IMG/VR virus record: IMGVR_UViG_3300045988_093487
DNA: 64,000 bases
Reading direction: 5' to 3' (one strand)
Source of the DNA: a virus
This document shows positions 1 to 64,000 of this stretch, piece after piece. The first letter of the stretch is position 1. Every line of letters begins with the position of its first letter. Made by a program: the position numbers and the translations under genes. Below the pieces are notes generated by a model. The model searched no databases. It was given only the letters and a program-made list of their open reading frames with translations, and was not told the origin of the DNA.

Positions 1-1
1 T

Positions 2-1123
2 ATGATTATTAACGGTAAACGCGCATTAGCATACGTAACTAAGATTGATGATATCGAACCGTTACAGGGATATGATAGGGTAGAGTACGCTAGAGTAGGG
101 GGATGGGGAGTCATTGTTTCCAAGGCTGACCAGTTTAAGTCCGGAGATAAGTGTGTTTATTTTGAGGTTGACTCTAAGGTAAATGCAGATGACCCTCGGT
201 TCGCTTTTATGGCAAAGCGTGACTATAAGGTTAAGTGCATTAAGATGTGCAAGGTATACTCTCAGGGCTTGATTATGCCTGTGAGTGCATTTGATGAGTT
301 AAAGGATGCAAATATTGGTGACGATGTTACTGATATTTTAAAGGTTCGCTATTCTGTCGAAGAGGATAACGCTCGTAAGTCGGATGTGGCTGAAAAGAAA
401 TTGACTTTCTTCGAGCGTATCAAGAATTTCTTTACTGGCAAGAAGGTAACTAATCCTCGCAAGTTCCCTACTAAGTTTGAGTACGTAAAGAAGTCGGACG
501 AAGAGCGTGTTGAGAATATGCCATTTATTTTGAAGGACAAAGAGCCTTGGATTAAGACCCAGAAGATTGATGGAACTTCTTCTACTTATATCATGGAAAA
601 GAAACCGTTTGGCCGTTGGGAATATTATGTATGTTCTCGCAATGTGCGTCAGCTTGACCGTAATCAGTTCACTTGGCACAATAAGGGCGGTAACGCTGAA
701 TCTAATGTGTACTGGGATATGAACGACAAGTATCATATTGATGAGTTCTTGAAGCGTTACATCAAGGATAATAACCTAAAGTATGCGGCATTGCAGGGTG
801 AAACCGCTGGCCCTAATCTTCAGGGTAATCCTCACAAGTATGGTGAAGTATGTTTCTTTGGTTACAATTTGATTCGTTCTGACGTTGGGCGTATCAATTC
901 TTTGGATGCAAAGAAGATTTGTAATGCTAATGGAATTGATTGGGTTCCTATCGCAGATGAGCATTATATCTTACCCGATGATATGGAGACTTTAAAGCTG
1001 GATGCTGATGGTGAGTGTATTGTTGGCACTGGCTTGCGTGAAGGTTGGGTTTATCGTAGTCTTGACGGTCAGCGCTCTTTTAAGAATGTTAGCCGTAAGT
1101 ATATGATGAAGCATGACGAATAA
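2..1123 (+). CDS. ATP-dependent RNA ligase (Rnl-like nucleotidyltransferase)
   Basis: KxDG adenylation motif (KTQKIDGTSSTY) after an N-terminal domain; ORF starts at window edge; sits in an RNA-repair neighbourhood. Confidence 0.55.
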   Translation: MIINGKRALAYVTKIDDIEPLQGYDRVEYARVGGWGVIVSKADQFKSGDKCVYFEVDSKVNADDPRFAFMAKRDYKVKCIKMCKVYSQGLIMPVSAFDELKDANIGDDVTDILKVRYSVEEDNARKSDVAEKKLTFFERIKNFFTGKKVTNPRKFPTKFEYVKKSDEERVENMPFILKDKEPWIKTQKIDGTSSTYIMEKKPFGRWEYYVCSRNVRQLDRNQFTWHNKGGNAESNVYWDMNDKYHIDEFLKRYIKDNNLKYAALQGETAGPNLQGNPHKYGEVCFFGYNLIRSDVGRINSLDAKKICNANGIDWVPIADEHYILPDDMETLKLDADGECIVGTGLREGWVYRSLDGQRSFKNVSRKYMMKHDE

Positions 1124-1137
1124 TCTAAAATAAGGAG

Positions 1138-1185
1138 AAACGCCGATACTGTCTTTAATGTGAAGAAAAGTCGGCGTTATTTATT
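1138..1185 (+). terminator. rho-independent terminator
   Basis: hairpin aacgccga...tcggcgtt followed by atttatt. Confidence 0.5.
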
Positions 1186-1187
1186 AA

Positions 1188-1415
1188 ATGGCATATTATA
1201 CCTACGAGCAGTTGGTAAATAAGATAAATAATGGCGAAGTAATTTATTTCGTTAATGCTGAATGCGATATTACAGAGTTTTCTTTTGATGGTCATTATAA
1301 AATGACAATATCAAATCTAATGAAAGTTATTTTTAACAAAGAATTAACCGAAGAAGAATTTAATGAACGCTTCACATATTATGTGAGACATTTCAAGATT
1401 GGCGGTAAAAAATGA
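1188..1415 (+). CDS. hypothetical protein
   Basis: 75 aa ORF with ATGA overlap to next gene. Confidence 0.4.
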   Translation: MAYYTYEQLVNKINNGEVIYFVNAECDITEFSFDGHYKMTISNLMKVIFNKELTEEEFNERFTYYVRHFKIGGKK

Positions 1416-1780
1416 ATAATGAAAAGTGTATGAATTGTGGAACTACAGTTGATGTTGAAGGTGTTGATATTTTGCCGCTTAAATATGGCAGTAGGTTTGA
1501 TGGTTGGGGGACGAGAGTTTTTCTCTGTAAGAAATGCTTGAGCGCTAGTCCATTTACTTCTATTGTTGCGGTAACAAACAAGGAACTTTCTGAGAGCAGT
1601 GATGCAACAGACGAAGATTTGCTTGAGTATAAGAATGAAGATGATATGTTTGATTACATCGAGTCCTTATCTCTTGAAAGTCAGGAAAAATTTTTTAACA
1701 GTAACGCTTACGGCGAGTTCTATACAAAACTGTCACCGGCTGTATGGTTGATGGCAGAAAGGAGTAGGGTGAATGGCTAA
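1412..1780 (+). CDS. hypothetical zinc-ribbon protein
   Basis: CxxC...CxxC pairs (CMNCG, CKKC) and an acidic C-terminus. Confidence 0.45.
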   Translation: MNNEKCMNCGTTVDVEGVDILPLKYGSRFDGWGTRVFLCKKCLSASPFTSIVAVTNKELSESSDATDEDLLEYKNEDDMFDYIESLSLESQEKFFNSNAYGEFYTKLSPAVWLMAERSRVNG

Positions 1781-2615
1781 TTATCAGAAAATCTTAGAGA
1801 GATTAAATCGTAGAAAAGACTATATCGAGCTAAATAGAAAATGCAAGGTCGTATTTGTCGGCCTATTTGGTAGTCAGAATTATGGACTTGATGATAACGA
1901 TTCTGACATTGATTGTGTTGTTGTTACAATGCCATCACTCGATGATTTAATTAGTGGTAAAACTGATGTAAAGACACTAACTCAATCAGAGTTCTCATCT
2001 GATTCTTCCGATGATGGTCAGGTAAAGTTGATGGATATTCGTGATTTTGCAAAACAGTTGGCAAAGGGCAGTTTTGTTAATCTTGAGGCGTTATTCTCTG
2101 ATTATGTCATTGTGGATGACTCTTTTAGAGATTTTTATAATGTTAGAAATAAAATTTACGATAGATATATCTGGCATTACCAGAACGCTGTATATGGTGC
2201 TATTCACCATATCTTAAACTACTACGAGATGAACGCTTGCGCTAACGAAGAAAATAAACAGTCAAAGCGTATGTATGAAGCGTTGCGTCTGAAGAATCTT
2301 TATAATCAACTTACGGATAAGAGTGACGTAGAGTCAAATTCGCGTCCAGAATTTTATATTGCCAATTTATCTGAAAGATGTTCTATCGGGAATGTAAAGT
2401 GCGGTGTTCTTGATAGTGCACAGTTTTTTGATAATGTAAAAGATATTGAAGCGCCTAGCACAAAAGAACCAAAGGTAGCGGAGTCTTTGTGTGGATTTAA
2501 CATTCAGATTTTGGCAAATCTTACCATTAAGAATAGTATAACTGGTAATTTGTACAGAAATAATTATGCTGCGAGTTCTGTAAGTTGTGCAAAAACATCA
2601 TACACAACCGCTTGA
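1773..2615 (+). CDS. Pol-beta superfamily nucleotidyltransferase
   Basis: GS-x9-DxD motif (GLFGSQNYGLDDNDSDID) typical of minimal nucleotidyltransferases. Confidence 0.5.
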   Translation: MANYQKILERLNRRKDYIELNRKCKVVFVGLFGSQNYGLDDNDSDIDCVVVTMPSLDDLISGKTDVKTLTQSEFSSDSSDDGQVKLMDIRDFAKQLAKGSFVNLEALFSDYVIVDDSFRDFYNVRNKIYDRYIWHYQNAVYGAIHHILNYYEMNACANEENKQSKRMYEALRLKNLYNQLTDKSDVESNSRPEFYIANLSERCSIGNVKCGVLDSAQFFDNVKDIEAPSTKEPKVAESLCGFNIQILANLTIKNSITGNLYRNNYAASSVSCAKTSYTTA

Positions 2616-4666: not shown

Positions 4667-4700
4667 TTTAGCGTGGAGAAATCCACGCTTTTTATTTTGC
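4667..4700 (+). terminator. rho-independent terminator
   Basis: agcgtggagaaatccacgct hairpin plus ttttattttg. Confidence 0.6.
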
Positions 4701-4708
4701 AAAACCCC

Positions 4709-4737
4709 TTGACTTTTCCTAGCGTCTATGATATAAT
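4709..4737 (+). promoter_or_regulatory. conserved phage promoter (aaaaccccTTGACT, 17 bp spacer, TATAAT)
   Basis: member of a 14-copy promoter family with extended upstream aaaacccc and downstream TAtAGG. Confidence 0.65.
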
Positions 4738-4771
4738 AATGATGTCAAAGATGTTTGACAGGAGGGTTTAT

Positions 4772-6046: not shown

Positions 6047-6952
6047 ATGCAGGAGTTTGTTATGTTGGTTGGACTTCCGGCAAGCGGAAAGTCTACCGTA
6101 GCGAATGAGTATATGGGAAAGGGGTATCTCATCTTTAGTTCTGATGCGATTCGCAAGGAACTTTTTGGTGACGAAAATGACCAGACTGACAATAATCTGG
6201 TATTTAATACTCTGCATAATCGCATTCGTACTGCAATGAAAGATGGTTTTAGTGTTGTATATGATGCAACGAATATCAATGCTAAACGGCGTGAAGGATT
6301 CTTACGCGAGATAGCGAAGGTAAACTGTCATAAGCATTGCGTCTTTATGGCTACTCCGTATTCCGTCTGCGTTATGCGCAATCAGAAGCGGGAGCGGAAA
6401 GTCCCCATGTCTGCTATGGAGCGTATGCGTAAGGGAATTGATATCCCGTACTACTTCGAGGGGTGGGACGAAATCACTGTTCGGCGTGTTAAGTTGGTAG
6501 CTCCGTATGAACCGTTTGACCTTGTTGACAGCCTTCTGAATTACAATCAGGAAAATCCGCATCACGAATTTACGCTTGGCGCACACATGAAAGAGGCGTG
6601 GCGTTACGCAGTAAACGAGGAATACGATATGTATGTTCAGTGGGCTGCTCTTGTCCATGATATTGGTAAACCGGCCACTAAGACGTTTACTAAAATGAAT
6701 GGAACAACTGATGGAAGTGCACATTATTACAGTCATCAGAATGTTGGTGCGTATGATTCTTTGTTCTTGAACTATCCGAAAGAAATTACGGACAAAGATA
6801 AACTGCATATTGCAGTTCTTATCAACTACCACATGATTCCCTATACATTTGGCAAGGGTAATATCGGAAAAGATAAGATGCGTGAACGTCTTGGAGACGA
6901 AATCTATAACGAGGTTATGCAAGTGCATAACTGTGATGTAAACGCACATTAA
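6047..6952 (+). CDS. polynucleotide kinase (P-loop) fused to HD-domain phosphohydrolase (Pnkp-like)
   Basis: GLPASGKST...DATN resembles T4 Pnk kinase; C-terminal H...HD...D (HHEF...LVHDIGKP). Confidence 0.6.
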   Translation: MQEFVMLVGLPASGKSTVANEYMGKGYLIFSSDAIRKELFGDENDQTDNNLVFNTLHNRIRTAMKDGFSVVYDATNINAKRREGFLREIAKVNCHKHCVFMATPYSVCVMRNQKRERKVPMSAMERMRKGIDIPYYFEGWDEITVRRVKLVAPYEPFDLVDSLLNYNQENPHHEFTLGAHMKEAWRYAVNEEYDMYVQWAALVHDIGKPATKTFTKMNGTTDGSAHYYSHQNVGAYDSLFLNYPKEITDKDKLHIAVLINYHMIPYTFGKGNIGKDKMRERLGDEIYNEVMQVHNCDVNAH

Positions 6953-6957
6953 AGAAA

Positions 6958-6983
6958 TAACCGCCATTTGGCGGTTAAATACA
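6958..6983 (+). terminator. rho-independent terminator
   Basis: aaccgccatttggcggtt hairpin then aaatac. Confidence 0.5.
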
Positions 6984-7001
6984 TATAAAAGAGGTTGAAA
7001 T

Positions 7002-8207
7002 ATGGCATTAACTTTCTATGATACCAATGCCTTGCTGAGTCTGCGTGAAAGCGCATTTGTTGAGAAATTTGCGTGTTCTCATAAAACGCTTGAGGAAATC
7101 GAGAACATTAAGACATCCGGCAAGAAAGACGATGAAACTAGGTATCGCGCAAGGAAAGTGGCACACGCTTTTCAGGATGGAAACAATTACATCGTTTGCA
7201 ACTACCCTTATGACAGAATTGTTAAGGAATTGGCCGCAAGAGGGCTTGAGGTAACTCCAGACGCAATTATTACAACAGAAGCATATCTGTTAAATTCTGA
7301 AACAGATGATGTCGTTTTTGTTACAGATGATGTAAATTGCTATAACATTGCGAAAAACATCTTTTGTCTAAAGACAGAGACTCTAAATAGCATCAAAGAA
7401 GATATTTACGAGGGATATATTAAGATTAGCGGCACAACTGACGAAATCAATGAGCAGATGGACGTTATTGACATGTCGAAGTTGTATGCCAATGAATATA
7501 TTGTAATTGACGATAAGTCGATTGGCAAAACGAAAGAAATGCGTTTTGATGGTAAAAAATTTGTTGAATTAAAGCTACCACCGTCTGGGTTTATTAAGGG
7601 CAAGAATAGTTTGCAAAGATGCGCGCTTGATGCTTTAAACAACAAGGATATTGACATTGTTGCAATTCTAGGAACGTATGGTTCTGGCAAGTCCTTCTTG
7701 TCTATGCAGATGGGATTGTATGGTGTAAATGAGAAAGGCTATCAGTCCAAAATTCTCGGTGTGCGCGAAGCGCGTGGCGAAGGTAGTGCAGTTGGTTACT
7801 TGCCCGGAGAGTTTGAGCAGAAAGTTGGTGACTTCTTTAAGCCTTTGGAGCAACAGCTAAAGGGCGGTGAGTTCGAGTTGCAGAGTCTAAAGCAGCGTGG
7901 TGTACTTGATGTTCAGATTCCTTATTATCTAAAAGGAACTACTTACGATAGTACCATTATGGTTGTTGACGAAGCAGAGGATTTAACGGAATCACAGTTG
8001 CGTTTGGTTGGCACACGTCTTGGTCAGAACTCGAGAATTTTCTTTTCTGGTGACTATAAGCAGTCTCTAATCAATAAAACTATTAGCAATCCGCTCGTTA
8101 AGATGTGTGATGAATTTAAGGGTAGCCCTAATTTTGCTTGCGTATTTCTTGATACCGATGTTCGTAGTGAAGCATCTAAGATGTTTGCTACTTTGTTTAA
8201 ACAGTAA
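7002..8207 (+). CDS. PIN-domain + PhoH-like ATPase (YlaK-like)
   Basis: N-terminal PIN-like region; Walker A GTYGSGKS; PhoH-like C-terminus. Confidence 0.65.
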   Translation: MALTFYDTNALLSLRESAFVEKFACSHKTLEEIENIKTSGKKDDETRYRARKVAHAFQDGNNYIVCNYPYDRIVKELAARGLEVTPDAIITTEAYLLNSETDDVVFVTDDVNCYNIAKNIFCLKTETLNSIKEDIYEGYIKISGTTDEINEQMDVIDMSKLYANEYIVIDDKSIGKTKEMRFDGKKFVELKLPPSGFIKGKNSLQRCALDALNNKDIDIVAILGTYGSGKSFLSMQMGLYGVNEKGYQSKILGVREARGEGSAVGYLPGEFEQKVGDFFKPLEQQLKGGEFELQSLKQRGVLDVQIPYYLKGTTYDSTIMVVDEAEDLTESQLRLVGTRLGQNSRIFFSGDYKQSLINKTISNPLVKMCDEFKGSPNFACVFLDTDVRSEASKMFATLFKQ

Positions 8208-8214
8208 TTGAATT

Positions 8215-8577
8215 ATGTATTTGCCTAATCATTTTGAAGCTATCGACAAGAGCGTTTTGAATGATAAGGCCAGATATAAAGAAGACTTTGGCGATATGTA
8301 TAGTTTATTGCTGGGTCTTCTTTCTACATCTGGCATCTATCCGAAGCATTCTTTAGATTATAACAAGATAACACTGGAGTTCGACGTAGATAACCGTATG
8401 TTGCAGATTATGATTTCTGACTTGTATGGTATGTATACATACGTAAACTATAACTCCGTAAGTAACGTAGTTACGTTAAATCTAGCTAGTTGGACTACCT
8501 ATGGTAAAATTTACCAGTTAGCCAACGCTATCTACGAATCCTACTTTAGATTGAAGAAAAATTCAAAAACCCCTTGA
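8215..8577 (+). CDS. hypothetical protein
   Basis: 120 aa ORF. Confidence 0.4.
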   Translation: MYLPNHFEAIDKSVLNDKARYKEDFGDMYSLLLGLLSTSGIYPKHSLDYNKITLEFDVDNRMLQIMISDLYGMYTYVNYNSVSNVVTLNLASWTTYGKIYQLANAIYESYFRLKKNSKTP

Positions 8578-12412: not shown

Positions 12413-12506
12413 GGGTATTAGTCTAACTGGATAAAACATCACTCTCCTAAAGTGAATTTCTCCGTTCGAGTCGGGGATGCCCCACCAAAATTTTTCTTAA
12501 AACCAC

Positions 12507-12535
12507 TTGACAAATCGCAAAAAGTATGATAGAAT
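12507..12535 (+). promoter_or_regulatory. conserved phage promoter
   Basis: aaaaccacTTGACA, 17 bp spacer, TAGAAT, then tataGGTGTTCCAAGGGGAAC leader hairpin. Confidence 0.6.
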
Positions 12536-12573
12536 ATAGGTGTTCCAAGGGGAACAGAAAGAAGGTATATTAC

Positions 12574-14739: not shown

Positions 14740-14812
14740 TGCGAATATAGTTTAGATGGTTAGAACGCCACACCAAAATGTGGAGACGTGGGTTCGAGTC
14801 CCACTTATAGTT
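14740..14812 (+). tRNA. tRNA-like element / probable tRNA pseudogene
   Basis: canonical D-arm (tagtttagatggttagaac) and T-arm (gtgggTTCGAGTcccac) but a 6-nt anticodon loop (ccaaaa) and a poorly paired acceptor. Confidence 0.3.
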
Positions 14813-19731: not shown

Positions 19732-20197
19732 AGTCAACATACGATTACGTGAAAGCACACAAAGACGAAGACCCCGGATTAACCGGATATGTTGGTTTTG
19801 CGTGTAGTTATTCTGGCAAGTGGTTCGGTGGTCTTGCGAGAAATAAGCGCGGTGAAGATTTCTGTGCTGGTGCAAATCACAGCATTTATCGTGACCTAAA
19901 TGGTTTGAAAAACGCGGAGTTCTTGTGTGGCGATTATCGAGATGTATCAATCCCGGACGATTCGGTTGTATATTTAGACCCGCCATACAAAGGAACTACT
20001 GGATATTCTACTGGTGATTTTGACCATGAAGCGTTTTGGGAATATGTAAGAGAACTTTCAAAAAGATGCACAGTTCTTGTAAGCGAAGAGACTGCTCCTG
20101 ATGATTTTGCCTGTGTCTGGTCTAAACAGATTGCAAGACAGGTAGATGTGCGGCAAGGTCGAGTCTATAAAACTGAAAAATTATTTTCCAAAACCAC

Positions 20198-20226
20198 TTG
20201 ACAAATTTCCAGAAATTTGGTATAAT
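20198..20226 (+). promoter_or_regulatory. conserved phage promoter
   Basis: ccaaaaccacTTGACA, 17 bp spacer, TATAAT atAG. Confidence 0.65.
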
Positions 20227-20270
20227 ATAGTTGTTCGATTTATTCTATATACATACAAGAGGTAATTTAC

Positions 20271-55510: not shown

Positions 55511-56140
55511 TTATCTAACAAACATTGCTTTCCAAGTATTCATACCTACAATTCCATCGGCAGTTAGATTATGTGCTCTCTGGAATTTTTTTACCTCATC
55601 TTCAGTGTTCTTTCCAAATTGACCATCAATAGGTATACCAAGTTTCTTTTGAACGAATTTTACAGCACTTGCTTTACCAACATTCGTTCCGCGTTTGATA
55701 ATTGGCATTAGGTCAACTCTATAATATTCGTATACGCCAGCTCTTGCACAAAGCCAAAATGTTTCTCTTGGTCTGGTATCAACATGGATAAAGTTCGTGT
55801 TACCGTAGTAGTACACTCCAACACCATTCGTGATAGTTTGTGCGTAATATGCCAATTCAACAGCGGAAACACCAGCAATCTGGATATCTGCCGCCATACC
55901 TTTTACATGATAGGAACCAGCAGAACCACCGACCCTGCGGTTATGCTCTGGGGTACGATATGCAGAATTTATTACAACCGGCTTACCAAAATAGTCACGG
56001 ATTTTTTGTAGAACTTCAACGAGAGCTGTATCAATAAGAACGGAGTCAGAACCATCCTTACAGGCGAACTCTTTTACAGTAAAATTTGTAGATAATTTTG
56101 TATTACCGTGTTCCTTTAGACTGTATGTTTTAACAGCCAT
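55511..56140 (-). CDS. endolysin: M15 peptidase (VanY-like) with C-terminal peptidoglycan-binding domain
   Basis: SAYRTPEHNRRVGGSAGSYHVKGMAADIQI (M15 zinc peptidase); C-terminal FQRAHNLTADGIVGMNTWKAM (PG_binding_1-like). Confidence 0.7.
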   Translation of the reverse strand: MAVKTYSLKEHGNTKLSTNFTVKEFACKDGSDSVLIDTALVEVLQKIRDYFGKPVVINSAYRTPEHNRRVGGSAGSYHVKGMAADIQIAGVSAVELAYYAQTITNGVGVYYYGNTNFIHVDTRPRETFWLCARAGVYEYYRVDLMPIIKRGTNVGKASAVKFVQKKLGIPIDGQFGKNTEDEVKKFQRAHNLTADGIVGMNTWKAMFVR

Positions 56141-56583
56141 TATACCATCCCTTTCTTAGATAAATAATATTTAGGTTTTTCTTCGTGGAACAAGAAGTAT
56201 CTTAAATAATCGTCAACGATAATAGCAACGATGCATAAGAAAAACCACAGAATAGTAAACGGTAAGCAAATCTAACCAAGAATATTAAATGGTAGATTTG
56301 AATAATCCCAAATGTGAAGACCCAGAAATAGATTTAGTATAATTCCTGCGATAAACTCACAACACGTTACAACAAGTGCACCAATTATAGACTGTTTCCA
56401 AATTTCCATTTTCCAAGGTAGATAATTATTTAATCCACCAATGACAACAAAACAAAAACCTCCAAGAACGCCCATTGTCCAATGAGTATGTCCGCGACAA
56501 AGCATCTCTATTCCGCAATATGCAAAACCACCAATTAAAAACAAGATTATAATTTTAAGTGATTCTTTTGCAAGATTTCTCAT
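56141..56583 (-). CDS. membrane protein with in-frame TAG; readthrough form ends in a TAATG overlap with the endolysin start
   Basis: 103 codons, TAG at 56272-56274, then 43 more in-frame codons including a TM helix (ICLPFTILWFFLCIVAIIV) ending at TAA 56140-56142, which overlaps the endolysin ATG. Confidence 0.55.
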
Positions 56584-56592
56584 ACAATCACC

Positions 56593-57228
56593 TTATTCAT
56601 ATTTAATCTCAATATTGTCAACTTCATTTTTAGATTTGCATTCTTTAATTTTTACTTCAATATCTTGTTGCTTAGATACTATTGGTTTTACATATTTAAC
56701 AATAGCGAGAGACAGCGCCGCAAGATTTTCGTAAGTCCACGCCCTACATCTATCTCCTGTTGTATTCCATGTAAGTTCCATAGGTTCCCCGATTGTAGAT
56801 GAAATTTGATAGGCGGCAAGGTTGCTTGTCAATAGCGCTTGTTTTTCTTCTGTAACAGAATAATATTCTCCATCAATCCATTGGAGTGGATGAGACGCAA
56901 GATACTCTTTAAGGTCGGTTTTGGATTTTGCGATTTTAGTATTTTTAATTTCGTTTAGTTTTGCTTCTAGCTCTTCTGCTGTATATAAGATGTATTTTTG
57001 AATTGGGATTTCTTCATCCCAAGCTCCTTTTGCTTCTACCGCTTCAACATCAACAATTTTTTTTACATCTTTGCCGCCATTTGGATATTCGGCAATGGTT
57101 TCATAATGAAATTTTTCTTTTACTTCATCAACTTTGTCATGGTGGATTGTTTTAATGTCATTTATAAGATATCCAAGTTCAAGATTAGGGTTGAAAATTT
57201 CATTCCCAGTTTCATCAATTATTTCCAT
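56593..57228 (-). CDS. hypothetical protein (structural?)
   Basis: 211 aa ORF. Confidence 0.45.
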   Translation of the reverse strand: MEIIDETGNEIFNPNLELGYLINDIKTIHHDKVDEVKEKFHYETIAEYPNGGKDVKKIVDVEAVEAKGAWDEEIPIQKYILYTAEELEAKLNEIKNTKIAKSKTDLKEYLASHPLQWIDGEYYSVTEEKQALLTSNLAAYQISSTIGEPMELTWNTTGDRCRAWTYENLAALSLAIVKYVKPIVSKQQDIEVKIKECKSKNEVDNIEIKYE

Positions 57229-57256
57229 TTTCTTCTCCTTTCTTCGGTTTTCCGGT

Positions 57257-58054
57257 TTACGCTACCACATGCCCAGTGTCGTCCACCGTCGCGTCCTGCG
57301 GCAGAATTATACAGGGGCGGATACCAGCCAAGTCGTAGCAGGCGAAAGTACTCCGGTCGCCAACGGAGTCGATAGTAATGGCATATCCACTGTCGGCACA
57401 GAATGGAGAGCGGAGCCACCAGTATGTGGCAGAGCCGTCGAGGAATGCGATACGCTTAGAATCCGAGCTATCATCCGCACAGCCCTTGAAATAGGCCAGC
57501 TCCGCACCTTCGCCGCTCGGCATATAGGGGAAGTTGAAACTCGTTTCGGTCGCACTGAGCAGGAAAATCTTCGCAGACAGGCCGTTCGAGCCGCTGGTGA
57601 CAATCGTAGACGTGTTGCCGCCTTTGCGGTACGGGAGCTTTACCTGCTTGATGGCGTTCTTGATGTTCGGCTCGAGAAGGTTTAGGAATGTGCTGTTCAG
57701 GTAGGAGTGGATGGTGCTGTTGGCGTAGTCGTTAGTGCCCGAACTACGCCACTGGCTGTTTTCGTAGATGTCTTTCATCAGCAGCCACGTGCCATTGCAG
57801 CTTGCGTCATAAATACCAGCATCCGGAATGCCCTGATGCACCACCAGCCAGTCGTAGTCCTTGCCGCTCACGGCGATTTTGACGGTCTTACCCACTTCGT
57901 AGCCGCCAAGCAGCGTGCCGCGCTGATACCACAATCTAGCAACCCCATTCACACCAATGTATGCCTTCTGGACTTGACGTGCTTTACCGTCTACTCCGAT
58001 ATACATCTTGGAGATGCTTTTCGCCACCCCCCCAATTCCGATATATGCACTCAT
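57257..58054 (-). CDS. putative receptor-binding protein with DUF1566/C-type-lectin-like C-terminus; candidate DGR target
   Basis: C-terminal ATYWWLRSPFCADSGYAITIDSVGDRSTFACYDLAGIRPCIILP resembles the DUF1566 ending (YW..S...A...G...VRP); the whole gene is far more GC-rich than the phage; GC-driven overlapping ORFs in other frames are artefacts. Confidence 0.5.
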   Translation of the reverse strand: MSAYIGIGGVAKSISKMYIGVDGKARQVQKAYIGVNGVARLWYQRGTLLGGYEVGKTVKIAVSGKDYDWLVVHQGIPDAGIYDASCNGTWLLMKDIYENSQWRSSGTNDYANSTIHSYLNSTFLNLLEPNIKNAIKQVKLPYRKGGNTSTIVTSGSNGLSAKIFLLSATETSFNFPYMPSGEGAELAYFKGCADDSSDSKRIAFLDGSATYWWLRSPFCADSGYAITIDSVGDRSTFACYDLAGIRPCIILPQDATVDDTGHVVA

Positions 58055-58070
58055 ATTGATTACCCCCTGT

Positions 58071-58730
58071 TTATCCTGAAATTGCAGTCGTCAATTTCCC
58101 TGCAATCACCTGTATCTGAGCATTCGCAGCAGTCAAAATATTTTCTACGTTTGTCTGCAAGTCAGAAGGCAACGTATCACCATACCGAATTGCAGAAATA
58201 GTTTCAATTTTATCCTCTCGTTTAATCCATTGACGTAATGCATTACAATATGTCGTTTGCTGAGTAACAAAACCTTTTGCGGCGATGTATAGTTCCATTA
58301 TATCAGAAGCACTATACATTTCGCATGGTTCACCATCTGCATGGTATGGGTATTCAGTCGCTCCAAGAGTGATTGCAGAAAAGATTCCGTCAATATTAGT
58401 TTGGTCATTTGCTGTTAAACTAAAATGTTTCTTACCAACACTTAGCTCGACATCAACACCGCTGTATATTACTTGTTCACAAATAGACGACATTTCGTCT
58501 AGCTTACTCTGACGTACTTCGTCAATGGTTGGCTCTACAGATTCTGGTTCTAGCGTAGGTTCCGGGACTTCTCCATATTCGTAGACAGTGTAGTATCCAT
58601 TATCCATGGAAATGCCCCAATACTTTTCGCCGGGTTTAGCAGAACCATTATGTTCATCCACCGCACTCTCAATGGAAGAATAATCCGCATTTTTAATCTC
58701 AACCTTATAGTTTGGGATAATTTTATCCAT
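58071..58730 (-). CDS. hypothetical protein (structural?)
   Basis: 219 aa ORF with RBS aaggagg. Confidence 0.45.
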   Translation of the reverse strand: MDKIIPNYKVEIKNADYSSIESAVDEHNGSAKPGEKYWGISMDNGYYTVYEYGEVPEPTLEPESVEPTIDEVRQSKLDEMSSICEQVIYSGVDVELSVGKKHFSLTANDQTNIDGIFSAITLGATEYPYHADGEPCEMYSASDIMELYIAAKGFVTQQTTYCNALRQWIKREDKIETISAIRYGDTLPSDLQTNVENILTAANAQIQVIAGKLTTAISG

Positions 58731-58745
58731 AACTCAAACACCTCC

Positions 58746-58979
58746 TTACGAATAAACGAACAAGACTGTATCGGTCTCCAAAGGGCTTCCGGCTCCGGGG
58801 TCAGATGTCTATGCCTTGAATTTAAAATTATTTACATTATCAATAGATTCTACATTGATTGTTCCATCGCTTTCTACATTTATTCCCTTACCTATTTTAA
58901 CCCCGCCAATATCCTCTTTGGTTGCAGGGGAAAGGGCCATATATCCACCTATAGACGTTGGGCCATAAGCCATATTCAT
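58746..58979 (-). CDS. small tail-fibre-like protein with in-frame TAG
   Basis: MNMAYGPTSIGGYMALSPATKEDIGGVKIGKGINVESDGTINVE shares the GGVKVGSGLTVDADGTLS motif with the large fibre; TAG at 58809-58811, then 20 codons ending at a TAA that overlaps the next gene's RBS (TAAGGAGG). Confidence 0.4.
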
Positions 58980-59104
58980 TCCTCCTTTTATTATATTTAA
59001 TTTTTATTATAATGTAATTTAAACAAATCATAAAATAATCATCGAAAAACAATAAGACCGCGTTTTGATGGGTGCTACAAATGGGAGTTATGGAAACGTA
59101 TAAA

Positions 59105-62100
59105 TTAACCAACTCTTTTCCAGATGTGCACATAGTAGGCGGCGGGCTGCACGGTATAGCTGCGACCGTAGATTGAGTTCGAGCGGGAAGCATCAAAGTA
59201 AACATCATACGTCGAACCTGACGTACCACTGTAGCCACCCCAAGAAGTATTGATTTCTACGAATTTTAAAGCTCCCGATGATTTCAAAGACGCTTTTGAA
59301 CCACGGAATGGGGAGGACTCTGCGGTTGCTTCTATTAAGCTGCCCGTGATGTTCGGCAGTCCGGCCTCCACCGTGCTTCCCGCTGTGTAGCCTGTGCCAG
59401 CACCCATCAGCACGCGGTTAAATGCAATCTCCTGCCATGTACCGCCGAACAGTGCGGCGGGACTGGTAGTGCTGACTGTTTGAAAAATACTGCCCACCGG
59501 GTAGGCAGACAGGCCGCTGTCCGCAGAAAGTGTTCCGTCCGCATCGACCGTCAGACCGCTGCCCACCTTCACGCCGCCCAGCGTGGTGGCGGTGGCAGCA
59601 GGGAGGGTGTATTCCTGAGCATCAGCACTCAATACACCTTTATTAGAAACTTTTAGCCCCTCTCCTACAATGATGCCACCTAGCTCTGTCGTCGTTGCAG
59701 GGGGCAGCATTGCTCCACCAATAGGGGTTTGACCAAAACTCATAAGGATATCTTCTCGGATAATGTAATAAAAAGCTTTAATAGATTCCGTTGGGATGTT
59801 ACGAGCACGGATTCTCAAATAATTAGGTAATGATTCTGTTGAAGTAAAATAACATTTTTTAGCGACTACATTACTATCTGGTGCAATGACAAGTGCAACA
59901 CAATCACTTCCTGTAATTCCTGTAGCTACAATGTCAATATAATTCGGATATGCAGAGTTACTATCTTGGTTCCATCCAGTTGTGGGAATCGTAATAGATA
60001 CAAGATTTATTTTTTCTGCTGCCTCATAACCAAGTGCTCCGTCAACGTTGTCTTTTATTAAACTAATCAAGCCTTTATTACCAACTGTAATATTGTCTCC
60101 AATTTGTACAATACCGGCATTAGTTCTCGTAGCATAATTAGTGTCTGTAACAACGCTTGTTTTAGAATAAGGAGTGATAGCTTGGTCAACAGAGGGGGCA
60201 TTTGCGGAGTATTTTAATACATATCCCCAATTGTCTTTTTTAGCTATAGATACATTGATAATAGAATTAAAGAATGTAGAGTCCGTGTTTATCCATAGTT
60301 CTGCATTACTCTGACCGTTTCCACCCGATGTTGGGATTAAATAGAAAAACTCTTTTTTTGTTGAATTGTTTTCGATATCTACATCGGAAGATTTTAGCTT
60401 ATCATCATACATAATATAAGAGAAAATGTAGGCTGTAGACAAATCGTTACTATTTGTTTGTGCTAAGTCATGGATGAATAATGTAATATTCTTACTATAA
60501 GCGACAGAGTTATTTTCTGTTGAAACAATTGTAGGACAGTTAATCTCAATTTTTATTAAATCACCGTCTGATGTGTTAGAAATGTTTCCTACATGAAACC
60601 ATGTTTGTCCGGTTACAGTAGACGCAGGGATGGTTTCTGTTAATATATATCCTTTTGGAGCAGCGCCGTCAATTGTGCTCGTCTCATTATTGCCCTTTGT
60701 GATGATGATTTTATCCCCTGTTGGACGCAAATCTTTGATGTACGTCGCATCTATTTGTTGACCAATAGAGTCATTTGTTGCGCTGTCTGCGCTAGTCGCA
60801 GTGTCAGCGTTACCAGTTAGATTACCAACAAACTTAGCATCACCGCTCATAGTAATGTCGCCAGTCATTGTACCGCCACTAAGTTTCAACGTGCCAACTA
60901 ATGCGTTTGCTACATTAGTCTCGCTTGTTTTAGCATTAGTTTCACTAATCTTCGCTTTATCTTCAGATGCCTTTGCTGCGTTTTGACTTACAAGAGCAGC
61001 GGCGGCAGATGCTGCGGCATCATTAGCAGATTGCTGTGAATTATCCGCATAGCTACTTGCGTTCTGTTCTGAAGCAGCAGCGTTAGTCTCGCTTGTTTTA
61101 GCATTAGTTTCACTAATCTTCGCTTTATCTTCAGATGCCTTTGCTGCGTTTTGACTTACAAGAGCAGCGGCGGCAGATGCTGCGGCATCATTAGCAGATT
61201 GCTGTGAATTATCCGCATAGCTACTTGCGTTCTGTTCTGAAGCAGCAGCGTTAGTCTCGCTTGTTTTAGCATTAGTTTCACTAATCTTCGCTTTATCTTC
61301 AGATGCCTTTGCTGCGTTTTGACTTGCAAGAGCAGCGGCGGCAGATGCAGCGGCATCATCAGCAGATTGCTGTGAATTATCCGCATAGCTACTTGCGTTC
61401 TGTTCTGAAGCAGTTGCGTTTATTTCTGATTGCTTTGCCGCCTTTTCTGATGCCAATGCTTTGGTTTCACTGGTTTTAGCAGCATTTTGAGAATTTAAAG
61501 AGGCTTGTGCCGAATTTGCAGAATCACTTGCAGAACTAGCCGAATCATCAGCGCTTGTCTTAGATGCGTTTTCTGAAGCTTTCGCGTTTTGTTCCGAAAT
61601 CTTAGCATTAGCTTCTGATGTAGCAGATGCAGTCTATGAAGCCTTTGCTTTATTTGCACTATCCGCTGCATTTGTCTCCGATGTCGCGGCATTCTGCTCA
61701 GACTGTTTAGCATTAGCTTCAGAAGTAGCGGCGGCTTGTGCAGATTTTTGAGCAGCAATCTGATAATTATGTGCATTTATTTCAGATTGTCTAATACTCT
61801 CAGCGGAAGCAGCGGCGGCATCTTTATATGCGTTTGCGTTAGCTTCAGAAGCGGCTGCATTACTAGCTGATACGGCTGCTGCATTTTTATAACTTTCTGC
61901 ATTGACTTCAGAAGCCTTTGCGTTGTCTTCAGACTTCTTAGCGGCCTCGGCAGCATTCATAGCGTCATCGTGGTAGCTACCAATTATTTTTTGGAATGTT
62001 GCAATAGCATCTGTCCAAACATCTGGATTTTTTGATGCAGAACCAACATCGAGCAGTCCTTTTTCGATATTCAAAACCTATGGTTTTGTATGTAAAATAT

Positions 62101-62461
62101 ACTAACCTTCTTCTGCCGCATCAGTAATGCGCCCATCATATATAGAAATATCATAAGTCAAAGTACCACTCGCGGCAGTTGCCTTTTGACTTAAATACCA
62201 AGGGAATATAATATATCTTTTTTCTCCATCAGTCTTAACTTCGCGAGTGTCGGAAAAGAAAGTATCAAATTGACCAAGAGCATTAACATACCGAATAGCT
62301 AAGATTTTATCTGTAATATCAACATCATCAATAACAGCCGGAATCTTAAACTTCAGAATACGCGAGTCGTTATCGTCAACAACAGCGATATTTTCCGTTG
62401 CGCATGGTACAATATCTCTATTTCTAATTTCAAAAATATATGAACTCAAATATTTCACCAT
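59105..62461 (-). CDS. tail fibre protein (about 1119 codons) containing three in-frame TAG codons
   Basis: ORFs 62102-62461, 61634-62074 and 59105-61456 are all in one frame, separated only by TAG codons at 62102-62104, 62078-62080 and 61634-61636; the Ala/Ser-rich repeat sequence continues unbroken across the 61634 TAG; no ATG or usable RBS exists for the internal segments; start ATG 62461 has RBS gaagga. Confidence 0.65.
60915..61420 (-). repeat. three near-identical tandem 168-bp (56-aa) repeats inside the tail fibre gene
   Basis: period 168 bp from ttagtctcgcttg at 60915, 61083 and 61251; encodes ASEQNASSYADNSQQSANDAAASAAAALVSQNAAKASEDKAKISETNAKTSETNAA three times. Confidence 0.8.
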
Positions 62462-62477
62462 CCTTCAAAAATATAAT

Positions 62478-62510
62478 TAGCATCCTCTAAACGAGGATGC
62501 CAACAGTTTA
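62478..62510 (-). terminator. rho-independent terminator (minus strand)
   Basis: minus-strand hairpin gcatcctcgtttagaggatgc followed by taattatattttt. Confidence 0.6.
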
Positions 62511-62515
62511 CTCTT

Positions 62516-62663
62516 AGATAAACTTTTCACCAGTAATATATTCATACTCTTCTGGAGTAATCCATCCCTTAGTGGTCACATTGTAAACCATCTGCTTAGT
62601 CCAGAATCCAGAATCGTAGTAATATTTAGCCTTCTTGCCATGAACGGACAATTCCATATCAGT
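62516..62663 (-). CDS. XkdX-like small phage protein
   Basis: 48 aa MTDMELSVHGKKAKYYYDSGFWTKQMVYNVTTKGWITPEEYEYITGEKFI with the XkdX-like ITxEEY..ITGE ending; family assignment from memory. Confidence 0.4.
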
Positions 62664-62671
62664 CATATATT

Positions 62672-62837
62672 AGTCCTCCATTCCTACTTCATCAGAAGCA
62701 ACTGCGTCAGTTGGCAAATCAATATCAGACATCACGGCAATATACTCAATCAGTGATTGCTGATTGCTAATCTGTGCATTACGATATTCTGCCATTTTCT
62801 CCTCATGAGGAGACATGATTGCCTTTTCAAATACCAT
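62672..62837 (-). CDS. hypothetical small protein
   Basis: 55 aa ORF between the reverse transcriptase and the XkdX-like gene. Confidence 0.3.
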
Positions 62838-62841
62838 AATT

Positions 62842-63888
62842 CTACCTCCATAATTCGTAATAGAATTGATTCATCCTTTGTATTAGCTTATATGAATTAC
62901 CATGTTCTGCATGAGCAACCCAACAGCTATAACATTGGTCTATCTTTTCTTTAGTTCTACGACCTTTTACAACAAGTTTAACCATTTTGCGCAATTTACG
63001 CTTTTCGTTCTTAACATTATCACCAAGAATTGACATAACAACTTTGCCAGTTTCAGTAAGCCTGAACTTAAATCCCAAGAAAGGAATACCCTGACCAACT
63101 CTATACAGTTTAGTTTTCTTAGGATGTAGTTCAAGACCAATTTTAGCTAATTCTTCTTGAATCTCGTGCATACACTTAATCAAGTAATTTCTGTCGTGAT
63201 GAATAAGAACAAAATCATCCATATATCTGATATAATACTTAATGTGCATACGTTCTTTAATCTTATGGTCAAGTTTATCCAGAACAGAAATGCCAGCAAT
63301 CTGAACGACTTGGCTACCGGGATTATACCCGGTATCACCGAGATATTGTTCATTTAATATTCTACAGACTCTATCTGCATATTCTGCTGGTAATTTCTCT
63401 CTAAACAAGGCATTTGTTGTATCGTGCCGCATATTATCATAATAGTGTTTAATGTCGCATTGAAGAACCCAAGCATCAAGACCGTTCTTTCTATAGCATC
63501 TTTGCAGATGACATTTTAAACGACCTCTAGCAAAATCAGTTCCTTTTCCTTTTTGACAAGCACAATTATCATAAATAAAACTTCGAGTCATTAACGGATA
63601 CACTATATTGTCATTAAGGCTACGTTGATACACTCTGTCTCTAAAAGCTATGCTTACAGCAATTCTTTCTTTTGGATGAGTGATATGAACCGTCTTAGTC
63701 GGGCGAGGTTGGTATGTTCCGTCTGCTAGTTGCTTTTCCAATTTAAGAACCTGTTCAATTCCATGAATATAGAAATTAGCAACAGATTCTTTCCAGCTAA
63801 CATTTTTCTTACACTTATATAAAGAATCAAGTAGGTGCTCGAAGTCTAGGACATTTACTACTTGATTCGATTCCTAATTGTTACTCAT
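62842..63888 (-). CDS. reverse transcriptase, DGR-type, with in-frame TAG at codon 5
   Basis: GTYQP, RIAVSIAFRDRVYQRSL, QCDIKHYYDNM (motif A), GYNPGSQVVQIAGI (SQ variant of the QGxxxSP motif, the DGR hallmark), YIRYMDDFVLI (YxDD); the conserved N-terminus LDFEHLLDSLYKCKK... is reachable only from ATG 63888 through the TAG at 63874-63876; the ORF track starts at an internal TTG; the gene ends with TAG at 62842-62844 and a TGA 5 codons later. Confidence 0.65.
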
Positions 63889-64000
63889 TAAACTTTGACC
63901 CAACAACTAAACTAAGCCGTATATAGGCGTACTGGCTCGAAAGCCAACGCCATCGGCATAGAGTGGTTTAGTTATCTTTTATAATTTTTAAAGCAAGATA

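Follow-up and report, generated by a model that had tools for sequence, protein, structure and literature searches.

The DNA analyzed here is a window of 64,000 nt from the virus record IMGVR_UViG_3300045988_093487, in which positions 57257-63888 had been flagged as a possible diversity-generating retroelement (DGR). This block holds a reverse transcriptase (RT) gene, a long tail-fibre ORF, and a gene for a 265-aa protein, all on the minus strand (Table 1). Two small ORFs lie between the RT gene and the fibre ORF, one of 55 aa (62670-62837) and one of 50 aa (62514-62666). The latter is XkdX-like, although its match to TIGR01669 (8.6e-4) was under the curated cut-off.

Table 1. Features of the locus within the window.
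Feature	Positions	Strand	Basis
DGR RT gene, start ATG at 63888	62827..63888	-	RVT_1, PHROG 1423, FP_Brigit RT, 8ub7_A, neighbouring template and variable repeats
In-frame TAG, RT codon 5 (M-S-N-N-TAG-E-S-N-Q...)	63874..63876	-	8/8 RT-bearing sequences
3' part of DGR RNA spacer (non-coding, template repeat to RT)	63889..64000	-	identical to L003:8462-8573
Interrupted stem-loop in spacer	63916..63957	-	conserved and covarying in ten RT relatives
In-window part of 3.5-kb DGR cassette	62505..64000	-	present or absent among related phages
Tail-fibre ORF, 1118 codons with TAG as sense	59105..62461	-	joins three standard-code ORFs
265-aa distal tail protein, DUF6273 C-lectin-like domain (predicted)	57257..58054	-	Pfam DUF6273, PHROG 10993, Brigit homology
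Segment equivalent to a variable repeat, residues ~205-252	57299..57442	-	alignment to Brigit variable repeat

The first-pass annotation had called a DGR-type RT at this locus, and our searches agreed with it. The RT matched Pfam RVT_1 (2.7e-17, profile search) and PHROG 1423, reverse transcriptase (1.7e-71). It was 32% identical to the DGR RT of the phage FP_Brigit (E=2e-53), and its closest solved structure was 8ub7_A (E=3.2e-20), with an alignment starting at residue 8. From its length (328 aa) and the entry series 8ub7-8ube, we took 8ub7_A to be bRT. The YMDD motif was present, while the GxxxSQ motif reads GSQVVQ, with the serine replaced by valine and the glutamine conserved. When relatives of this RT were inspected, 41 of 48 had the layout of a variable repeat (VR), a template repeat (TR), and the RT.

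The TR had been reported as absent from the 64 kb, and an adenine-tolerant scan and a repeat search of the window found none. It had been proposed that the TR might lie past position 64000, by the RT start, and this was found to be the case in the related contig L003. L003 overlaps the window by 12 kb, with 100% identity over 61083-64000 and 99.95% elsewhere, and differs within this otherwise matching overlap by having one copy fewer of a 168-nt fibre repeat. It extends beyond position 64000 and carries a canonical DGR with a target gene, an accessory Avd gene, a TR, and an RT. IMG/VR gave nothing that extends the sequence further upstream, either with a late protein or with a 26-mer. The TR (L003:8268-8389, window-equivalent 64073-64194) occupies nucleotides 73-194 beyond the window end, and the VR is at L003:7522-7643 (window-equivalent 64819-64940). 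TR, Avd and VR were read from other assemblies, and their assignment to the window rests on the near-identity of L003 to it. On the minus strand, the element would consist of a 402-aa DUF6273/C-lectin target with a 122-nt VR at its end, the 147-aa Avd, a 122-nt TR, a 184-nt structured spacer, and the RT, of which the window contains the RT (63888 to 62827) and the final 112 nt of the spacer.

TR and VR of L003 are 85% identical. The changes from TR to VR were ten A>T, four A>G and three A>C, with a single T>C located at the 3' edge; inside the repeat, 17 of 17 differences were at TR adenines. Seven related contigs carried seven distinct VRs, while their TRs were adenine-rich and nearly invariant, and each VR departed from the TR of its own contig almost exclusively at adenines. 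Two near-identical strains, L005 and L009, were compared: their VRs differed at 19 of 122 nt (15.6%), against 6 of 1077 nt (0.6%) upstream of the VR, which makes the VR 28-fold more divergent than the remainder of the 402-aa gene. Between-strain sequence differences of this kind show diversification in the lineage, not activity of this particular genome. The DGR is apparently active and belongs to an uncultured gut phage.

The true target is the 402-aa gene, which lies outside the window, upstream of Avd. Its product matched DUF6273 (C-lectin; 2.7e-11), and the VR spans its last 44 codons. This gene was the sole adenine-tolerant VR match of the local TR. When the whole window was scanned with the TR for a second VR, the best match had 11 non-A mismatches in 50 nt, equal to the matches of shuffled TRs. 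A hairpin with a 13-bp stem and a 4-nt loop follows 24 nt past the VR and is conserved in the seven contigs. An Avd gene was not evident in the window, as had been stated before, and was found just outside it, at L003:7793-8236. The 147-aa product matched PHROG 3206, 'Avd protein of DGR' (1.2e-8, residues 2-144); the PHROG profile alone found it, while Pfam, NCBIfam and a sequence search of the PDB gave no match.

The spacer between TR and RT contains an interrupted stem-loop that reads GCCG-AU-GGCGU-UGGCU-UUCG-AGCCA-GU-ACGCC-UAUAUA-CGGC. In an alignment of ten RT relatives, 93.8% of the cells were compatible with pairing, compared with 29-52% when the partners were slid by 1-3 columns. Compensatory changes occurred in 13 of the 16 pairs, and none of 500 shuffles reached as many. 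The region of TR and spacer matched no family in Rfam. In position and shape, the stem-loop resembles the stem in the BPP-1 spacer that binds bRT (bioRxiv 10.1101/2023.10.23.563531), and by this analogy it is probably where the RT binds the DGR RNA.

In L004 and L002, 43 bp stand in place of L003:6423-9958, between flanks that otherwise agree at 97-98% identity. The DGR forms a cassette of 3.5 kb that brings an extra target gene of its own and that some near-identical phages have and others lack. The part of the cassette in the window contains the RT and the 55-aa and 50-aa ORFs.

Translation of the late genes depends on the reading of TAG. The fibre ORF merges three standard-code ORFs ('119-aa', '146-aa' and '783-aa') via the TAG codons at 62104-62102, 62080-62078 and 61636-61634, and its C-terminal part matches Gp10_C. 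The first two TAGs are conserved in eight of eight strains, and the third is CAG (Gln) in the seven other strains. In-frame TAGs were also found in the RT and in the 56-aa and 103-aa ORFs of the window, and in late ORFs of L003:3200-5800. As a terminator, TAG was found in 2 of 52 early ORFs, both with a back-up stop or a coding-like extension. These sequence patterns show that TAG is read as a sense codon throughout the late genes. Since three independent sites with TAG in the window and L003 have CAG in other strains, the codon is most likely decoded as glutamine. ARAGORN, run on the window and 22 loci (L003, L058 and others), and Rfam, run on the window, gave no amber suppressor tRNA(CUA) in ~80 kb; the same is reported for some recoded phages (PMC10607447). 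The window contains 13 tRNAs and one tRNA-like element (14741-14812). The latter was rejected as a CUA suppressor because of its 6-nt anticodon loop (CAA-like) and poor acceptor stem.

The RT gene itself is affected by this recoding. With the standard code, the RT ORF covers 62842-63741(-), but its frame runs upstream to the ATG at 63888, the end coordinate of the flagged block. The standard-code 'stop' at 62844-62842 is TAG too, and the next stop is the TGA at 62829-62827. The TTG at 63741 was rejected as the actual start codon, since residues 8-50 align with bRT and with the Brigit RT as homologous sequence; the alignment to the Brigit RT begins upstream of this TTG. No ATG, GTG or TTG occurs between the TAG at codon 5 and residue 50. 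Because of the in-frame TAG at codon 5, translation of the RT would require that TAG be decoded as an amino acid. This TAG was kept in all eight RT-bearing sequences (the window, L003, L005, L009, and L010-L013), while codons 2-3 varied (MSNN, MNNN, MDNN).

The codon-5 TAG may serve as a translational gate on mutagenic retrohoming. With such a gate, synthesis of the RT would have to wait until the phage has made the infected cell read TAG as Gln, at a late stage of infection in which progeny genomes exist. The idea is based on the conservation of the codon-5 TAG in all eight RT-bearing sequences compared, as opposed to the three other TAG sites that alternate freely with CAG. We consider this reading of the amber codon unlikely, and a rewriting of the 265-aa gene in trans by a Brigit-type DGR of the same host less likely still.

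The same codon could mean that the system is a dead relic, with an RT pseudogene cut by a premature TAG and VR differences that are old. The standard code indeed strips the RT of its first 49 residues, a stretch with homology to bRT's N-terminal region, and the ~80 kb gave no suppressor tRNA. However, TAG is plainly sense in the late genes and avoided as a terminator in the early genes, and the codon-5 TAG persists while adjacent codons change. The RT is otherwise intact, including YMDD, the TRs are nearly invariant and still adenine-rich, and the VR is far more divergent than the rest of its gene between two near-identical strains. We therefore regard a relic as very unlikely.

The gene for which the locus had been flagged is the 265-aa gene. 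The C-terminal part of its product reads ...YWWLRSPFCADSGYAITIDSVGDRSTFACYDLAGIRPCIILP..., and it had been described as ending in a DUF1566/C-type-lectin-like motif. The C-lectin fold was right but the family was not: the protein matched Pfam DUF6273 (3e-33), a structurally related fold, and PHROG 10993 (1.5e-53). A structure model (pLDDT 68) matched the Lcl C-terminal domain, TvpA and C-type lectin domains. The gene is GC-rich, as noted before, with 55-56% G+C against ~33-40% in its flanks. Compared with the C-lectin part of the DGR target of FP_Brigit, it is 89% identical in DNA (57405-57811) and 70% in protein. The gene is of foreign, Faecalibacterium-phage-like origin, its lectin domain having been acquired by horizontal transfer from a target of this type. 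The architecture usual for DGR variable regions was thus seen correctly as far as the scaffold is concerned, but the gene is not a variable gene of the local element.

One explanation for this scaffold is diversification of the 265-aa gene in trans. Its source could be a second TR within the remaining ~35 kb of this genome, or else a Brigit-type DGR carried by a prophage that shares the host. Besides the high DNA identity that the gene has with the Brigit target as far as the VR, the alleles of L004 and L007 share the 3' end of the Brigit VR, CGCCCCGCTTTGAT. Against the Brigit TR, the segment 57299-57442 differs at 20 of 30 adenines and at 28 of 98 other bases, an enrichment at adenines. The entropy among 70 homologues was highest at residues 211-243, equivalent to the VR, so that hypervariability across the family sits at VR positions. 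The 28 non-adenine mismatches, however, exclude the Brigit TR as the template of this segment, and variation among five strains was not concentrated at TR-adenine positions (Fisher p=0.2). Homologues of the gene in two unrelated prophages had no RT or TR within 10 kb. An adenine-tolerant scan (at most 3 non-A mismatches per 60 nt) of the whole window in both orientations found no partner of 57200-59800, and the same scan of L003, L004, L062, L065 and L066 found no TR for the 3' end of the gene; no cognate TR was found in the ~80 kb of genome examined (window and L003). Diversification in trans is therefore very improbable.

The original proposal was that the C-terminus of the 265-aa protein (57257-57420) is the VR rewritten by the local RT. 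In favor of it, the gene's scaffold fits and a true DGR target is homologous to it; the VR-equivalent residues are the most variable among its 70 homologues, and bins 661-780 showed slightly higher variation between strains (16 and 14 sites per 60 nt). The other bins, however, were almost equally variable (13, 13 and 12 sites), and focal hypervariability among close strains was absent, with variable sites spread over the whole gene and no enrichment at TR-adenine positions. A search for a near-repeat of 57260-57420 beyond position 64000 had been suggested, but the TR found there was no more similar to 57257-57480 than expected by chance, and it pairs with the 402-aa gene only. The large fibre had been named as a second place to look, and its C-terminus showed no similarity to the TR either. 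Phages lacking the RT cassette (L004, L007 and L008) retain the 265-aa gene with similar variation. The proposal is thus highly improbable. It is almost inconceivable that the RT belongs to another class (a retron, a group II intron or a defence-associated RT): NCBIfam gave matches to group II RT/maturase (92.6 against a 300-bit cut-off), Drt3a and retron St85, but all were far below their cut-offs, whereas the best structure is the 328-aa RT of the series 8ub7-8ube, the FP_Brigit DGR RT is homologous, TR, VR and Avd adjoin the gene, and TR-VR pairs accompany most of its relatives.

We concluded with high confidence that the RT is part of a real phage DGR and that the 265-aa gene is a related C-lectin gene, not the DGR target. 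Because a VR scaffold is kept but no cognate TR is present here, the 265-aa gene is not diversified by the local element; an orphan or relic VR scaffold is the description that suits it best. Its product may be a second C-lectin receptor-binding protein. By analogy with the DGR family, a complex of RT and Avd would bind the TR-spacer RNA, reverse transcription would misincorporate nucleotides randomly opposite TR adenines, and the resulting cDNA would replace the VR. The outcome would be the diversification of 14 AAY codons in the ligand-binding face of a putative accessory virion protein.

Earlier publications describe both DGRs with DUF6273 targets and DGR RT genes with amber codons, and the present findings leave the known DGR mechanism unchanged. 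What they add is one more well-documented, apparently active DGR of the gut virome, in an uncultured phage of ~100 kb that uses TAG as sense. They also illustrate three pitfalls in DGR calling. The TR, Avd and VR were concealed by the window edge; a C-lectin homologue that retains a relic VR scaffold served as a decoy; and standard-code ORF calls shortened the RT and divided the fibre into three ORFs.

The prototype, the BPP-1 DGR (mtd-avd-TR-brt), shares with the present element the gene order of target (VR), avd, TR, spacer and RT. Adenine-specific differences between TR and VR, the position of the VR at the 3' end of a receptor-binding gene with C-lectin fold, a hairpin directly after the VR, and a structured spacer with a long interrupted stem before the RT are also common to both, and the local RT aligns end to end with 8ub7_A, taken as bRT. 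The two differ in the target domain (DUF6273 here, Mtd in BPP-1), in the local Avd, which is detectable through a PHROG profile only, and in the RT, with its GSQVVQ motif in place of GxxxSQ and its in-frame TAG. The host here would be a gut Firmicute-type organism, in contrast to Bordetella.

FP_Brigit, a Faecalibacterium phage, has a DGR target described as 'Hoc-like' or tentaclin (PMC5883640, PMC10743442), with four Ig-like domains after the VR part (PMC10743442). The 265-aa gene resembles the N-terminal C-lectin (DUF6273) domain of this target, VR scaffold included; the RTs are homologous, and the Avds fall in one PHROG. The Brigit order, however, is avd(TR)-RT-target, and its VR is near the 5' end of the coding sequence for a 617-aa protein. 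The 265-aa gene, which has no cognate TR, also has no Ig domains and encodes an N-terminal anchor of another kind, in which a YIG motif is repeated. The local TR and VR are unrelated in sequence to those of Brigit. A DNA search of a phage collection, including 25 kb of the early region, gave no match except the Brigit-derived segment.

TAG-recoded phages are known from the gut (bioRxiv 10.1101/2021.08.26.457843; PMC10607447), and seven RT genes with an amber codon have been reported in TAG-recoded Zeta crAss-like phages (PMC12386605). Like those, the present phage, a gut phage of ~100 kb, treats TAG as sense and has a DGR cassette among its late or structural genes, an amber codon in the RT gene, a C-lectin target, and early genes largely without in-frame TAG. 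Unlike them, its promoters and gene content look Firmicute-type.

The late and structural genes at 55-64 kb form a block on the minus strand (table). The first-pass annotation had suspected a diversity-generating retroelement (DGR) from the reverse transcriptase (RT), had found no template repeat (TR) in the window and had proposed that it might lie just past position 64000. All three points were borne out. A repeat search and a scan permitting unlimited mismatches at one base detected no template-like repeat of 57200-59800 in the window, and the TR was found beyond its end in a longer contig.

Eight contigs were retrieved by exact-protein look-up with the 119-aa ORF (62102-62461). One of them, L003 (ENA ERZ27250578 k119_15915, 115,939 bp), was 100% identical to the window over 61083-64000 and 99.95% identical over the remaining overlap; the two are essentially the same phage. 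L003 differs in a 168-nt tandem repeat of the tail-fibre gene (60915-61418; 56 aa, rich in Ala/Ser/Asn/Glu), of which the window has three copies and the otherwise identical L003 one fewer, two. Window coordinates X convert to L003 coordinates as 8462 + (64000 - X). A canonical DGR, with TR, variable repeat (VR) and accessory gene (Avd), was found directly past the window end in L003, L005 and L009.

Features of the DGR and of the neighbouring late genes, with examples of the early promoter-like repeats
Feature	Window or window-equivalent position	L003 position	Strand	Remarks
Target gene	64809-66017	6445-7653		402 aa, DUF6273
VR	64819-64940	7522-7643		
147-aa ORF (Avd)	64226-64669	7793-8236		
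TR	64073-64194	8268-8389		
TR-RT spacer, 3' part	63889-64000			
Interrupted stem-loop	63957-63916			UUCG loop
RT start	63888	8574		ATG
RT ORF	62842-63741		-	ORF finder call, start TTG at 63741
Two small ORFs, long fibre gene, DUF4376 proteins	55-64 kb block		-	
265-aa gene	57257-58054		-	Pfam DUF6273
Holin-like and M15 endolysin genes	55-64 kb block		-	
Promoter-like repeats (examples)	4694-4738, 12487-12545, 20178-20236		+	

In L003, the changes from TR to VR were A>T (10), A>G (4) and A>C (3), with a single T>C at the 3' edge, and the TR read in the VR frame contains 14 AAY codons. The entire 147-aa protein matched PHROG 3206, 'Avd protein of DGR' (1.2e-8), and gave no match in Pfam, NCBIfam or PDB sequence searches. 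A hairpin with a 13-bp stem and a 4-nt loop, 24 nt 3' of the VR, was kept in seven contigs. The seven contigs L003, L005, L009 and L010-L013 carried seven distinct VRs and nearly invariant TRs, and each VR departed from its own TR almost solely at adenines. Between the target genes of L005 and L009, 19 of 122 nt differed in the VR, against 6 of 1077 nt in the remainder. A TR-VR pair in the order VR-(Avd)-TR-RT was also present in 41 of 48 RT relatives in IMG/VR, and four of the other seven have too little upstream flank for testing. We concluded that the DGR is real, canonical and apparently active.

The DGR cassette spans 3.5 kb (L003:6423-9958, extending to window position 62505) and holds, besides target, Avd, TR and RT, a 55-aa ORF and an XkdX-like ORF. 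In L002, L004 and comparable contigs, 43 bp stand in its place (L004:9916-9958), between flanks that are 97-98% identical. Judged from these contigs, the whole DGR is an insertion/deletion polymorphism of phages sharing 97-98% identity elsewhere. The first ~30 codons of the DGR target (L009:6436-6527) shared 84% DNA identity with L009:14330-14421, where a 629-aa gene with a GDSL-lipase domain begins, close to the lysis genes; the two proteins may have a common N-terminal virion-docking module.

The 265-aa gene had been put forward as the variable gene of this DGR, a claim that failed: the only adenine-tolerant match of the TR was the 402-aa gene, and alignment of the TR with the flagged segment scored at chance level. 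It is this gene, a DUF6273 paralogue lying past the window end, that is the true target. The 265-aa protein ends in YWWLRSP...GIRPCIILP, and its Pfam family is DUF6273 (3e-33) instead of the proposed DUF1566; the gene has 55-56% G+C between flanks of ~33-40%. Its DNA at 57405-57811 was 89% identical to a 'Hoc-like' gene of Faecalibacterium phage FP_Brigit, whose annotated DGR (TR L001:9967-10094, VR L001:7902-8029) shows 13 A>G, 1 A>T and 1 C>T differences between TR and VR. Since the FP_Brigit VR aligns with residues ~205-252 of the 265-aa protein, the annotation had recognised a true VR scaffold, though one unlikely to work as a VR here. Use of DUF6273 as a C-lectin DGR target, FP_Brigit included, has been published (PMC10743442).

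The FP_Brigit TR was rejected as template of the flagged segment, which mismatches it not only at 20 of its 30 adenines but also at 28 of the 98 remaining bases, a pattern that fits a diverged relic. Among five strain alleles, variable sites were spread gene-wide with no focal hypervariability and no enrichment at TR-adenine positions (p=0.2). Three phages without the RT cassette retain the gene. Homologues number more than 5000, and many are 264-268 aa long; across the family, the highest-entropy residues are VR-equivalent (211, 218, 220-224, 227-231, 235-243) and interleaved with invariant ones. In two unrelated prophages, a homologue closes the tail module, and neither RT nor TR lies within 10 kb of it. 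From these comparisons, the flagged gene is best described as an orphan or relic VR scaffold from a Faecalibacterium-phage-like source. No second VR was found in the window, where the best TR match had 11 non-A mismatches per 50 nt, within the shuffled-TR range. The C-terminal end of the fibre (59105-59750), with GC up to 55% against ~36% for the genome, suggests a second receptor-binding module gained by horizontal transfer; this end neither resembled the TR nor matched any record in the phage collection.

The RT frame is open upstream of the ORF finder's TTG as far as the ATG, with an in-frame TAG at codon 5 (63876-63874). No ATG, GTG or TTG occurs between this TAG and the TTG at codon 50, so the RT must be translated through the TAG. 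The residues between TAG and TTG are homologous to the N-terminus of the FP_Brigit DGR RT, and the RT aligned from residue 8, N-terminal residues included, with the 328-aa RT of PDB entries 8ub7-8ube (E=3.2e-20). The search output names no organism for this chain, and we take it to be bRT of the Bordetella phage. The codon-5 TAG was present in 8/8 sequences checked, in which codons 2-3 differ, and no TAG was seen near the RT start in relatives at 67% identity or less.

In-frame TAGs were not confined to the RT. The '119-aa', '146-aa' and '783-aa' ORFs are a single frame, 62461-59105, interrupted by three TAGs alone; with TAG as sense, the joined tail-fibre ORF, 59105-62461(-), has 1118 codons. 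The 56-aa and 103-aa ORFs likewise run on past TAG, and in upstream late ORFs of L003 in-frame TAGs are numerous and are the sole stop codons. The region concerned covers 55182-63888 (minus strand) and L003:1-8462. The first two fibre TAGs were conserved in 8/8 strains; the third (61636-61634) occurred only in the window and L003 and was CAG in seven other strains. The phage thus reads TAG as a sense codon, most likely for Gln, since CAG stands in other strains at three independent sites where the window and L003 have TAG. Among 52 early ORFs, just 2 terminate at TAG: in one a TGA comes a single codon later, and in the other 60 coding-like codons follow. More speculatively, the conserved amber codon could confine production of the RT to the late, recoded stage of infection.

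Searches over the ~80 kb seen turned up no suppressor tRNA(CUA). A tRNA-like element at 14741-14812(+), detected by Rfam (43.6 bits) but missed by ARAGORN and lying inside a cluster of 13 tRNAs, was dismissed as an amber suppressor for its 6-nt anticodon loop and mismatched acceptor stem, and is probably a degenerate tRNA. The early region (window 1-2615 and, off the position-1 end of the window, L058:1-10000) encodes a set related to RNA/tRNA repair or translation: RNA ligase, PTH2 peptidyl-tRNA hydrolase, YqeY/GatB-like protein, DNA ligase and CCA-adding enzyme, joined by Thg1 in a relative. These functions may bear on the phage's change of decoding. At least 10 promoter-like repeats, AAAACCCCTTGAC(A/T)...TGGTATAAT, precede early genes over 2588-53497(+), and their conserved upstream AAAACCCC element reaches past the -35 box.

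There is published precedent for every component of this DGR. Late-gene stop-codon recoding in phages (bioRxiv 10.1101/2021.08.26.457843), recoded phages without suppressor tRNAs (PMC10607447) and amber codons inside DGR RT genes (PMC12386605) have also been reported. The spacer between TR and RT was compared in ten relatives with RTs 47-67% identical to that of the window. In these author-picked sequences, from which the stem-loop model was itself derived, 93.8% of cells paired, against 29-52% with partners shifted by 1-3 columns, and 13 of 16 pairs showed compensatory changes, values matched by 0 of 500 shuffles. The spacer of Bordetella phage BPP-1 holds an element bound by its RT, bRT (bioRxiv 10.1101/2023.10.23.563531). 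Like that element, the stem-loop of the window lies directly before the RT and has a long stem with interior loops, and we infer from this likeness that the two would be functionally equivalent.
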